64,000 nt of DNA from Cladosporium halotolerans. Its lineage: Eukaryota. The first letter of the stretch is position 1; each line of letters opens with the position of its first letter. The DNA lies in assembly GCF_011745625.1 (NCBI RefSeq), contig NW_027191461.1, positions 124,001 to 188,000 of the forward strand. The letters run 5' to 3'. Under the pieces are notes generated by a model. It saw only the letters and a list, made by a program, of their open reading frames with translations, searched no databases and was not told the DNA's origin. Shown in pieces: positions 54,151-59,098 of the stretch. A program made the translations under genes and the position numbers.

Positions 54151-55065
54151 GGTGGACGTCGTGCGTGGCTGCTTAGCGTCTGCTGAAGCTGGCGAGTCGG
54201 AGTGGTCTCGCTTCATCTAATGGGACTTTGTGCGAGGCGATATGTTCTTGTTGATCAGGGGAAATACGGGAATTTTCTCTCAATCGTAAGTCTGATTTGC
54301 CTAGAGCAAGTGCCGCTACGACGCTGGTTACAAAGCAGGAACAAGCCGAAGACGAGCTGCCCTAAACACAGGCAACTCGCAAGATTTATGTTGAGTCGCA
54401 CATTTTCGCGCCGGCACTCCAGGCTACCCGGAGACCCCGATGCCTACAGCACAACCTTTCGCCTCCACCGGCTGTGGAACTCCTGATGGCCTGCGATGGG
54501 TCGCACAAAGGCTGGCGGTTGTATCCACCGCTGTCCATAGGATCACATTGTACGAGCGTGCGGTATAGGGCTGTGCTGGGCCGATTTTCTCGCTTCGCTT
54601 AAGCGAGTGGGATTCTCGCCTCGTAAGTGGCTCGTATCAGCTCGGAGGACGCGCTTCCCGGTCGGCGGGCAGGGATTCCTGGTGAACCCCGCGCTTTTGT
54701 GGGGCGATGAGGCTGCTTGGAGAGAGCTTGGTGCGGGTGCCTGACCGACAACTGCCGCTGTCAACACTCGATACATGATCTTGTCTTTTGTATCCGCGAG
54801 CATTGTAAATACCCATCACGGCGTTGAAGCTGAGTGGAAAGGCTGATAGTCTTACTCTTGCAGTCTGCGACCAGCTACCGCAGAAAGGATCCTCATCCTG
54901 CGCCGTGACGCAACCATCGCGACAGAGCTCAGCTCAGCCGTACGCTCAGCCAGGTAGCACTCGTACCTCCATCATCCACCGTGCCAACATTCCCACCCAA
55001 CAAGTAACATCTTATAATTATCCTCACACCAACATCACCTCACAAATTCCACCCCGCCGCCCAAC

Positions 55066-56703
55066 ATGACCGCCGGCTCCGAAACCAAACCCGCCCCACC
55101 CCAAAACCACACCGCGCGCACCTACTTCGACCACTCCTCCGCCCCACGCACCAACACCGACGCCGTCCTCGTCGACTCCCTGCGCAGCGAATACCCCAAT
55201 CTGCACCTGACCATCGTCCCCCAGTCCTCCTGCAACCTCCTCACCTTCGCCAGCGCCGGCAACGGCGGCCTCGCGGCCATCGACAAAGAGCCAGACCGCC
55301 TGCGCTGGAGCGTCTTCTCGCCGCCCGCGACGCGGCTGGACGGCGACGACGGCGCGCTGGCGGAGCACGTCAAGTTCGGCAAGTTCCTGCTCGACTGGCA
55401 GGGCAAGGAGTACGTTGTCTTCGTCGCCGAGGGCCGCGACGGCGGCAGCGCGTACCCCAGCGTCACGAACCAGTACGTCCTTTCGCCTTCCGTGGACGCG
55501 ACGGACCGCCTGCTGCTGGCGGCGGGCAGGTGGGCGAACGAGCTGCACGGCGAGGTGTGGGTGTTCGACGGCGGGCGCTGGCTGAAGTCCGCGCAGCTGT
55601 GGGAGAGCGTCGCCAAGGCGAGCTGGGACGATGTGATTTTGGACCAGGACATGAAGGATGCGATTCGCGGGGACGTGGATCGTTTCTTCGACAGCAGGGA
55701 GACGTATGAGAATCTGAAGGTGCCGTGGAAGAGGGGCATCATCTACTACGGTCCGCCGGGGAACGGCAAGACGATCTCGATCAAAGCCACGATGCATGCG
55801 CTGTATGAGCGGAAGCCTGCGATTCCAACATTGGGTGAGCGATCTTGAAAGACATATTCACGAGGACTGAGCTGAGTTAACCAAACCGCAGTGAGACACA
55901 TTGTTCCCGATCATCCTCGTGAACTCAGCCGCCCTCCCTACCCCATTTGAAAAGGCCAGCAGACTAACACCCCCCACCCCCAGTACGTCCGCAGCCTCTC
56001 CTCCTTCGCCGGCCCCGAATACAGCATCAACGCCATCTTCGCCCTCGCCCGGCGCAGCGCCCCCTGCTACCTCGTCTTCGAAGACCTCGACTCGCTCGTC
56101 TCCGACTCCGTGCGCTCCTACTTCCTCAACGAAGTCGACGGCATCAAGCGCAACGACGGCATCCTCATGCTCGGGTCCACGAACCACCTCGACCGCCTCG
56201 ACCCGGGCATCGCCAAGCGCCCCTCGCGCTTCGACCGCAAGTACCTCTTCCCCAACCCGGGCGGCGCCCAGAGGACGGCGTACGCGCGGTTCTGGAGGAG
56301 GAAGCTGGAGGGGAACAAAGAGGGGCTGGAGTTTCCGGACCGGATGTGTGGAGCCATCGCGGGGATCACGGGCGGGTTTTCGTTCGCGTATATTCAGGAG
56401 GCGATGGTGGCGAGTTTGTTGGCGATCGCGGCGAGGGGGGAGAGGGATGTTGCTGTGGAGGAGAGGAGGGGGTCGGCTGATCGCGTTGCGGGCGACTTGG
56501 ACAGATTGTCGGTCGAGGACCGTCGGGCTGCTCTGAGGTGTGCGTGTGGGGTTTGCAATGAGGGGGAGGAGCCGGATTTGAGCGGGCTGGTGCTTTGGAG
56601 GGAGATTCAGAAGCAGGTTAAGATTCTTAGGGAGGAGATGGGGGATGGTGGGGACGAGGAGGATGCTGCTGCTGCTGCTGCTGCTGCTGCTGGGAGCGCA
56701 TGA
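55066..56703 (+). CDS. Single-module AAA+ ATPase (fungal family of unclear function)
   Basis: Exons 55066-55833 and 55984-56703. Walker A GPPGNGKT, Walker B YLVFEDLD, FLNEVDG, and SRH GSTNHLDRLDPGIAKRPSRFDRKY. Confidence 0.88.
55834..55983 (+). other. [D1,2] stwintron: internal U2 intron 55835-55891 nested in the donor of a 93 nt external U2 intron
   Basis: TTG|G-[GTGAGC...GTTAAC..CGCAG]-TGAGAC...GACTAAC..CCCCAG|TAC. Only two-step excision gives the in-frame join PTL-YVRSL. Confidence 0.8.
56665..56691 (+). repeat. (GCT)9 microsatellite encoding poly-Ala
   Basis: Nine perfect GCT units just before the AAA+ ATPase stop codon. Confidence 0.9.
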
Positions 56704-57289: not shown

Positions 57290-59098
57290 TCAAAAGCAGA
57301 ACATCACGCCGTGCGCCCCCACGTTGTCGCCGGCGTCCTCCCTCTGCACCTCGCGCGCCTTCTGTCGGCTCGCGGCGCTGGGGCTGTGAGGGCTGGCGTT
57401 GGCGGCGCGCTTGCCGTCCTTGGCCGAGCCGGCCGTGCTCGTCGTCTTGACCAGGTCGAGGCCGTTCAAGCCGCCGCCGCTGGCGTTCCGCTCTTCCGCG
57501 GGCGTGATGGCGTCGTCGTCGTGCGCGCAGGAGCCCGAGGACGACGTCTCGGAGAAGATGGAGGAGGGGGAGGTTTGCTGCTCGGCGGGGGCGGGCTCGC
57601 TGTCGGTCTCGGTCGGAGAAGTGGTCGCGTCCTCTTCTTTGTCGAAGTCGTGCGCTTCGTAGGTTGGGGGTTGCAGGCGCCAGTCTTCGAGGCGCTCGGC
57701 GCGCCAGTTGATGCGCATGCGCTTGCCGTTGCAGATGACGATGTCGCTGGCGCGGACGGCGTCGGCCATGAGGAGGGGCGCGCAGCGGCGGACGTAGCGG
57801 CGGACTTGGGTCGAGGTGCGCACGTGGGGAGGCTGCCATTTTCCGTCGGGGCTGAAGTTGGTGGGCGCGGTTTCGTAGACGTTCTGGGAAGTGGATAATG
57901 CGGAGGAGGCGGTGGTTGTTCGAGAATATGGAGGGCGGCTGGATGTGGAAGTCGTTGTGGGAGTGAGTGGATTGTGTTCGTTGAAGTCCTCGCGAATGGC
58001 GGAGAGGTCGATTTCTTCCTCTTCTCGCACAGGTGCGCTCAAAGGAATCGTCTCTGTGATCTGTTCGGGAGCTGTTGCGGTAGTGGCATTTGAATTCGCC
58101 TCGTTGCCGTGCTCACCAAACGAAGGACACATCTGCTGCAAGAGGCGCTCCTGCTCAGCGATGACCTCAGGGTTGGTGATGTCGTTGTTCGCAGGCGCTT
58201 GCGGTCGTCGCCTGCGGCGAGGTACTGTGCACTGCTTCGAAATATTCCGCTCATCGATCGCAGGAGCAAGATCGATACCAGCGCCGATGTCGTGGATCAA
58301 GTCAAGAATCGCATCTTCGCTCTTGTGCGCCAGCAAGATCTGATCGGTCTCGAGACGCAACCTCATGATAAACTGCTCCTCTGCTCTGAACAATTGAGGG
58401 TCCTTCTTATAAGCCTTGTTCTGGGCAGCCTTTGGGATCAGATGAGCGAGCTTGCTGTTGGGAACGAGCACTTCGTGGAAAGCGTCAGGAGCCAGACCGA
58501 TCTCTGCGTGCTGCAGGGTGTAGGATCGCAGCAGCCTGTGCGGTTTGCCATCTTTGGTGACGCGGTGAAAGTTAAGCAGCGTCCCTCTGACCTCGACGAA
58601 AATGTCCCTCCACTCGCTCTGCGCAACGCCATGCAACGGGCTGACGGATTCCATGTTGACGAGCATCCTGACGCCGGCTGACACGGTGCAACTGTACTCC
58701 GGCAGAGCCTCCCTGCCGCCATCGTTGCCTCGCCGTGAAACAGGCTTCCGTTGTGCGGCAGACGCGTAGCTCGGTGGGCTGTCCGAGGCCGGCGAGCAGG
58801 TCGTTTGGAATGAGTTGAAGTAACTCTGAGCCTTTCGCGCGGGTCTCGTCGTTGCCGTTCCAGCAACGCTATTAGTGTTTGGATCTTGCGGCGCAGCTGG
58901 CGCCGCCGACGGAATCGTGCCTTCCGTTTCCAAGATTGTCACAGCCAGCTGGCTCAAGACTTGAGCTTGGCCCTGGCTCTCTGAGTTCGCCATGTGAGCC
59001 GTTTGAAGAGACCGCTGTGCGAGGTGCAGCTTGTGCAGCTCTTGCAGTCTCCGTGCGATCTCGTCCCTGCCAGCTTCGATTTCAGACCGGGACAGCAT
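57290..59098 (-). CDS. Fungal PH-domain protein with PY-like motifs
   Basis: 602 aa single-exon ORF with PPSY, LPEYSCTV, EWRDIFVEVRGTLL, RSYTLQHAEIGLA, RLRLETDQILL, AGIDLAPAIDER and PPTY. Confidence 0.75.
   Translation of the reverse strand: MLSRSEIEAGRDEIARRLQELHKLHLAQRSLQTAHMANSESQGQAQVLSQLAVTILETEGTIPSAAPAAPQDPNTNSVAGTATTRPARKAQSYFNSFQTTCSPASDSPPSYASAAQRKPVSRRGNDGGREALPEYSCTVSAGVRMLVNMESVSPLHGVAQSEWRDIFVEVRGTLLNFHRVTKDGKPHRLLRSYTLQHAEIGLAPDAFHEVLVPNSKLAHLIPKAAQNKAYKKDPQLFRAEEQFIMRLRLETDQILLAHKSEDAILDLIHDIGAGIDLAPAIDERNISKQCTVPRRRRRPQAPANNDITNPEVIAEQERLLQQMCPSFGEHGNEANSNATTATAPEQITETIPLSAPVREEEEIDLSAIREDFNEHNPLTPTTTSTSSRPPYSRTTTASSALSTSQNVYETAPTNFSPDGKWQPPHVRTSTQVRRYVRRCAPLLMADAVRASDIVICNGKRMRINWRAERLEDWRLQPPTYEAHDFDKEEDATTSPTETDSEPAPAEQQTSPSSIFSETSSSGSCAHDDDAITPAEERNASGGGLNGLDLVKTTSTAGSAKDGKRAANASPHSPSAASRQKAREVQREDAGDNVGAHGVMFCF

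Follow-up and report, generated by a model that had tools for sequence, protein, structure and literature searches.

A probable [D1,2] spliceosomal twin intron in an AAA+ ATPase gene of a Cladosporium-like dothideomycete

The 150 nt located at positions 55834-55983 of the window, as the whole 64-kb stretch of DNA analysed is called here, are best explained as a [D1,2] spliceosomal twin intron (stwintron) hosted by an AAA+ ATPase gene of a Cladosporium-like dothideomycete, a reading to which a probability of roughly 0.87 is assigned. An ordinary 57-nt U2 intron (GUGAGC...GUUAAC...CAG) would be set between nucleotides 1 and 2 of the donor of a 93-nt external intron. The same reading had been proposed in an earlier note on this DNA, and is now backed by a match to the published [D1,2] pattern at 55834-55983, by the joint found in RNA-library contigs, and by 119 of 120 homologues.

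The gene opens on the + strand at ATG 55066, and its first open frame ends at TGA 55846-48. From 55951 to the stop at 56701-03 (+), the same genomic frame is open again. The parts of the gene and of the element are the following.

55018..55848, + strand: open reading frame covering exon 1 (from the open reading frame list)
55951..56703, + strand: open reading frame covering exon 2 (from the open reading frame list)
55066..55833, + strand: exon 1, 256 codons, carrying the N-terminal domain and Walker A (GPPGNGKT), with end ...AIPTL
55834..55834, + strand: G1 of the split donor of the putative external intron, and 5' end of the putative stwintron (from the sequence)
55835..55891, + strand: putative internal intron, 57 nt, with donor GTGAGC (55835-40), branch element GTTAAC (55876-81) and acceptor CAG (55889-91)
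55892..55983, + strand: remainder of the putative external intron, 92 nt, in which TGAGA (55892-96) completes the donor G/TGAGA
55984..56703, + strand: exon 2, 239 codons plus stop, beginning YVRSL..., with Walker B (VFEDLD), the remainder of the AAA domain and the C-terminal tail

The two exons make up a gene of 495 codons. The N-terminus of exon 1 agrees with the homologue consensus MTAG..., and exon 1 alone has no Pfam match. Exon 2 matches the Pfam profile PF00004 (AAA) with an E value of 6.6e-10 over profile positions 45-130 of 131, which is the second half of the domain. Walker A, Walker B and the profile match assign the product to the AAA+ ATPases. Both TTG 55831-33 and TAC 55984 are in frame with ATG 55066, and the 150 nt in between begin with GG, not with GT. 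The external intron, 1+92 = 93 nt in all, features a perfect ACTAAC (55964-69, within GACTAAC 55963-69) located 11 nt upstream of the CAG at 55981-83. GC content is lowest in the internal part (0.47), intermediate in the external part (0.58) and highest in the exons (0.64-0.66). Reading through the element encounters the in-frame TGA at 55846-48 and two further in-frame stops, three in total. After a single splice from 55835 to 55983 a surplus G would remain, and the product would have 165 out-of-frame residues. The in-frame TGA and the frameshift had both been described in the earlier note and were reproduced on recomputation; its coordinates and motifs (TTG, G, GTGAGC, GTTAAC, CAG, TGAGAC, GACTAAC, TAC) proved exact when checked again on the sequence. 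At the other end of the gene, eight GCT codons in a row (poly-alanine) are found at 56667-56690, just before the ATPase stop, in a C-terminal tail which is variable among homologues.

The mature joint was inspected in the 120 best-scoring exon 2 homologues long enough for full length. The motif P[TS]L-Y[VI] is unbroken in 119 of these, which bears out the TLYV continuity anticipated earlier, and the residues flanking the joint are nearly identical to ...IPTL and YVRSLSSFAGPEYSIN... of the window. It follows that TAC 55984 has to come directly after TTG 55833 in the mature message, all 150 nt being taken out. The sole exception among the homologues listed is P0001, a Cladosporium fusiforme model and the closest public protein bearing a species name, which reads ...ERDPQ-YVRSL and is devoid of the four residues VPTL featured by the 90%-identical P0124. 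To judge from the sequence, the gap probably results from a gene caller retreating to an upstream in-frame GT, the GGT start being unusable. Two canonical in-frame GT-AG alternatives, absent from the earlier note, are present in the window. One is a single intron spanning 55835-55954, which would add 10 residues; the other starts with a 42-nt intron (55835-55876), which a 14-nt micro-exon separates from a 93-nt intron (55891-55983), and would add 5 residues. Both conflict with the homologues, none of the 120 having inserts of 5 or 10 residues at the joint, and with the RNA joint described below.

The published five-motif pattern of [D1,2] stwintrons (Model A; PMC9024468, section 2.1) was searched on both strands of the 64-kb window. 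One match was found, exactly at 55834-55983. The mean number of matches in 100 dinucleotide-preserving shuffles was 0.11 (maximum 1); as the single match falls where the gene needs 150 nt removed, it is regarded as beyond chance. The 5' hybrid motif is formed by G55834 and GTGAGC (55835-40), one of the 24 Model A donors. The internal branch element GTTAAC is located 35 nt after the donor (25-80 are allowed) and 7 nt before the CAG (4-20 are allowed). It fits the published degenerate motif, which is DYTRAY in Model A, and is not the optimal CTRAC. The 3' hybrid motif is CAG/TGAGA, and joining of G1 to T2 and following residues after the first splice would yield GTGAGA. The external intron has in turn its own branch element ACTAAC, and CAG as an acceptor of the HAG type set by the model. 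AG is followed by T at only two sites within the element. With AG 55875-76 the intron would be 42 nt long and the resulting donor, GTTAAC, a poor one; with AG 55890-91 the donor is GTGAGA. When all GT, GC and AG sites were tabulated, no single GT-AG or GC-AG intron able to remove these 150 nt was found.

The start of the element could be read in close relatives, by searching with exon 1 plus its read-through for ORF calls running into the intron. P0121, 94.5% identical over exon 1, reads ...AIPTL-GE..., P0122 and P0124 read ...VPTL-GK..., and P0123 reads ...IPTL-GM. All four relatives reaching the junction thus have Gly followed by Glu, Lys or Met, as encoded by G+GTGAG, G+GTAAG and G+GTATG, respectively. 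PTL-G needs the extra G, because an ordinary phase-0 donor would give Val. The ORF calls of these relatives end inside the intron, and their element can be deduced for the first 6-7 nt only. The 46-residue tail of P0121 is compatible with a branch element, TAG and TGAGA at homologous places, corresponding to a 54-nt internal intron, a fit shared by 64 of 500 shuffled tails. Back-translation showed that the read-through tails of P0122 and P0124 stop upstream of the 3' hybrid motif. P0121 and an 89%-identical homologue of the neighbour gene are both on contigs of 13,696 nt, which suggests that they lie on one genomic contig with conserved gene order. The neighbour gene itself (57293-59098, - strand) is an uninterrupted frame of about 600 codons, the homologues of which are called PH domain-containing protein by some sources. 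It has close unnamed relatives at 96% and 89% identity; the best named match is from Cladosporium sp. NU13 (62%), and other Capnodiales-like fungi are near 45-48%. By these values the window lies close to the Cladosporium species sequenced so far, yet outside them.

A search of sequencing runs listed 23 of them. Assembled contigs of three RNA runs (X15, X16, X17) and one DNA run (X4) were aligned to positions 55400-56400 with a minimum likeness of 90%. The X4 contig comes from another isolate. Over the 692 nt from 55400 to 56091 it shows 8 substitutions and no gaps. Two of the substitutions, T to C at 55902 and G to A at 55893, are inside the element; the latter changes the regenerated donor from GTGAGA to GTAAGA, and both hexamers are on the published donor list. 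An assembly error adding one G, as contemplated in the earlier note, would reduce the element to an ordinary 149-nt GT-AG intron beginning TTG/GTGAGC..., and this single canonical intron, with good donor, branch site and acceptor, would restore the frame. The GGG at 55833-35 is nevertheless to be taken as real, since the X4 contig, assembled independently, has no gap there. The four relatives translating PTL-G similarly need the extra G, and the AG/TGAGA junction would have to be a coincidence. An error of this kind is hardly credible. In the same DNA run, a 32-nt contig corresponding to 56062-56093 (Walker B codons, PCYLVFEDLDS) has a word depth of 445, versus about 10 in flanking contigs. 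This 32-mer occurs once in the 64-kb window, and could be common to numerous paralogues, or to other organisms present in run X4.

Contigs of the RNA libraries X15 (659 nt) and X17 (359 nt) skip exactly 150 nt, from 55832 to 55983 with a slide of 1. The skip equals the joint 55833/55984, that is, an apparent GG-AG excision. This is the ACATTG/TACGTC joint that had been predicted, here found in a relative sharing about 96% identity with the window; the two contigs use no alternative in-frame sites, the usage of which would have spoken against the original proposal. X15 and X17 are two runs of one study and count as one source, and DNA carry-over in the RNA library is possible. The X16 contig (RNA) spans only 56000-56174, a part of exon 2 away from the joint. 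X15 differs from the window at 23 of 647 positions and X17 at 8 of 359 (about 3.6%), and the contigs are consequently assigned to a close relative, of another strain. Most of the changes are at third codon positions in both exons (15/18 in X15, 4/4 in X17, 9/14 of the exonic changes in X4), an excess denoting a gene under purifying selection.

That difference of about 3.6% leaves room for a further explanation, according to which the RNA contigs derive from an intron-less relative, and the copy in the window is either a frameshifted pseudogene or is spliced at other sites, such as 55835-55954, which are GT-AG and in frame. A protein of the same clade, P0005, indeed reads straight through the joint, on a 5.3-kb contig that may be DNA or RNA. 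The substitution bias seen in both exons points instead to a gene under selection. Having only 3 non-third-position changes in 647 nt, the organism of X15 and X17 is closer to the window than P0121, in which the G+GTGAG start is present. The lack of 5- or 10-residue inserts in the 120 homologues and the perfect ACTAAC 11 nt before the CAG at 55983 add to the evidence against this explanation, the probability of which is judged to be very small.

Under the stwintron reading, removal of the element would proceed in two steps. The internal intron would be first taken out by normal intron definition, and G55834 would be fused to UGAGAC, creating the donor GUGAGA right after UUG. The external intron would be then removed by using ACUAAC (55964-69) and the CAG at 55981-83. 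The end product is ...AUU CCA ACA UUG/UAC GUC..., or ...IPTL-YVRSL..., the joint seen in the RNA-library contigs of the close relative, and links Walker A of exon 1 to Walker B of exon 2. The 5' splice site recognized by the spliceosome is an invariant GU, rarely replaced by GC or AU. From the need for GU at this site, and from the intermediates of other [D1,2] stwintrons, we infer the inside-out order. The anatomy of the motifs, together with experiments on stwintrons of the same type, is what points to this order and to the intermediate. RNA reads and RT-PCR on Hypoxylon sp. CO27-5 confirmed excision in two steps, through a detectable intermediate, for 31 of the 36 sister [D1,2] stwintrons predicted in this fungus (PMC8469720).

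One could alternatively envisage that the spliceosome takes the non-canonical GG at 55834-35 as 5' splice site and removes the 150 nt in one step, the internal signals being incidental. The mature joint does equal that of an apparent GG..AG intron. Neither a splicing intermediate nor a one-step mis-spliced form was found in the X4 and X15-X17 contigs, and absence of the intermediate is in keeping with one-step removal; assembled contigs drop rare forms. The invariance of GU, which is established spliceosome biology, is hardly compatible with the use of GG. A complete five-motif internal intron at permitted spacings is moreover expected just 0.11 times per 64 kb, the X4 change maintains GTRAGA, the relatives maintain G+GT, and other elements of the same layout have been found to be spliced in two steps (PMC8469720). 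One-step use of GG is accordingly deemed most improbable. Occasional one-step mis-splicing of [D1,2] stwintrons, in which the internal donor is joined to the distal acceptor, is reported for Xylariales (PMC12403724), and in the ATPase gene would put the product out of frame. That one-step mis-splicing tunes the output of the ATPase gene, as the earlier note had suggested, is speculation.

A rapid maximum-likelihood tree was computed for 49 rows of the N-terminal region. In it, P0121 is the partner of the window (support 99), and the two belong to a group of 13 rows (support 81) in which P0122-P0124 and P0001 are also found. P0003 is placed in the sister group (support 99); its longest contig (80,351 nt) agrees in length with the 80-kb contig of locus L001, to which this protein probably corresponds, and L001 has no intron at the joint. 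More distant relatives, 44-68% identical over exon 2, are encoded by 80 metagenome loci. Intervening sequences at the L/Y joint were found in none of the 80, and at least 75 read straight through; L045 ends short of the joint, and L051 and L053 are too diverged. Some short contigs in this set may be transcripts, long ones are DNA (L001 on the 80-kb contig, L048 on a 45-kb contig). The downstream neighbour gene had no matches in the 80 loci, so that orthology of the intron-less loci is not backed by position. The joint position appears occupied only in the clade of the window, since the intron is found in 0 of the 80 distant loci, and gain or loss both fit. The instance is conserved over a clade of about 80-95% protein identity.

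Across the family, no fewer than four distinct intron positions are found in the stretch from Walker A to Walker B. An intron is found inside Walker A in P0125-P0128 and in L002, L003, L015, L017-L023 and others, as signalled by ORFs ending in GPPG-K.. and by tblastn HSPs breaking near query residue 89; the gene in the window is without it. Six homologues 54-65% identical (P0134, P0157, P0183, P0194, P0198, P0203) read ..PT-V[SCG].., like a phase-0 GT intron, one codon (3 nt) upstream of the stwintron position of the window. In the tree these six are scattered over three places, and intron sliding or independent gain may account for their position. Another recurrent position, some 6-7 codons past the junction, is featured by P0144, P0145, P0148, P0160 and others, as well as by L034 and L068, in which ORFs end in YV[KR]xLx[RG] and HSPs break at query residues 119-121.

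The element includes a perfect 10-bp inverted repeat, the arms of which are listed below.

55857..55866, + strand: 5' arm of the inverted repeat, TTCACGAGGA, inside the putative internal intron
55914..55923, + strand: 3' arm of the inverted repeat, TCCTCGTGAA, inside the putative external intron

A repeat of this length was reached in 1 of 300 dinucleotide shuffles. The arms enclose the internal branch site, the internal acceptor and the remainder of the external donor, and form the main stem of the predicted MFE fold; both X4 substitutions in the element (55893 and 55902) are in the loop, not in the arms. The global structure of the 150 nt is not unusual, the MFE being -26.8 kcal/mol (z -0.72), with 43 of 200 shuffles folding at least as well. 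Terminal or near-terminal inverted repeats (TIRs of 45-55 nt, NTIRE-9/10) were looked for in the element and not found, the only notable repeat being the internal one of 10 bp. Sister copies were similarly sought by blastn of the element against the 64-kb window and the 80 loci, and only chance matches of 11-15 nt were retrieved. It is conceivable, and rather doubtful, that the whole twin intron had been gained as a unit at an unoccupied position in a Cladosporium-like ancestor, by propagation of the type known so far only in Xylariales, the 10-bp repeat being a worn-down remnant of the symmetric structure that propagating elements have. If so, stwintron propagation would reach Dothideomycetes, and a connection with the introner-like elements of Capnodiales would be possible.

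Several families of known elements can be compared to the one described. In Hypoxylon sp. CO27-5, 36 sister and 81 sequence-unrelated [D1,2] stwintrons are known, and 288 sequence-similar ones are found in 14 Xylariales. As in the [D1,2] stwintrons of Hypoxylaceae and Xylariaceae, the element has G plus a full donor, an internal branch site, HAG/T plus the donor remainder, an external branch site and HAG, fits exactly the Model A formula, and occupies an intron position absent from more distant relatives. The non-canonical GGU start, unseen by automated annotation, is likewise a trait of the [D1,2] type (PMC8469720). In contrast, the host belongs to Dothideomycetes, being Cladosporium-like, and not to Sordariomycetes, sequence-similar sister copies are missing from the 64-kb window and the 80 loci, and long terminal inverted repeats are lacking. 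The 10-bp repeat is internal, 23 nt and 60 nt from the ends, whereas NTIRE-10 of Xylaria stwintrons is near-terminal (PMC12403724). Stwintrons conserved across fungal classes are the [D5,6] type in a reticulon-like gene, the [D2,3] type in bioDA, and the stwintron of lipS (PMC6616335, PMC5639578, PMC9024468). The nested U2 intron that breaks an external donor, and the clade-conserved arrangement, are common to these and to the element in the window; the donor is split 1/2 here versus 2/3 or 5/6, and the gene is another one. In Dothideomycetes the stwintron of lipS is missing throughout, and that of bioDA is confined to Botryosphaeriales (PMC5639578).

Other stwintrons are known from Aspergillus and related fungi, the [D1,2] type occurring in hundreds in Xylariales. 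In recursive splicing at the ratchet points of long animal introns, a first splice regenerates a 5' splice site, which is used by the second splice. Regeneration and use of the 5' splice site at a new junction would be shared by the stwintron. In recursive splicing, however, GU is wholly downstream (AG/GU), whereas here G is upstream and U is downstream, so that the site moves by one nucleotide, and the introns involved are tiny (57 and 93 nt). Capnodiales introner-like elements, as presented in PMC8469720, resemble the element in belonging to a related lineage, in occupying a new intron position and in having an inverted repeat, but are canonical single introns with many near-identical copies, while no copy of the element was seen in 64 kb. 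In the literature searched, no paper dealing with both a stwintron and an ATPase was found, and the stwintron papers whose text was searched name no AAA ATPase; the only item in which a stwintron and Cladosporium occur together was a 2014 review. The example is well supported and clade-conserved; it belongs to a known but rare kind, its mechanism holds no surprise, and lineage and gene appear to be new for [D1,2] stwintrons.

A working AAA+ ATPase would be made only if two nested splicing reactions excise exactly 150 nt which resemble a forbidden GG-AG intron. Standard gene callers are unable to model a twin intron of such appearance, and an example documented beyond the Xylariales and Aspergillus systems is useful for correcting annotation. 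The gene may also serve as a test bed for the origin of nested introns at new positions, and for the frequency of mis-splicing.
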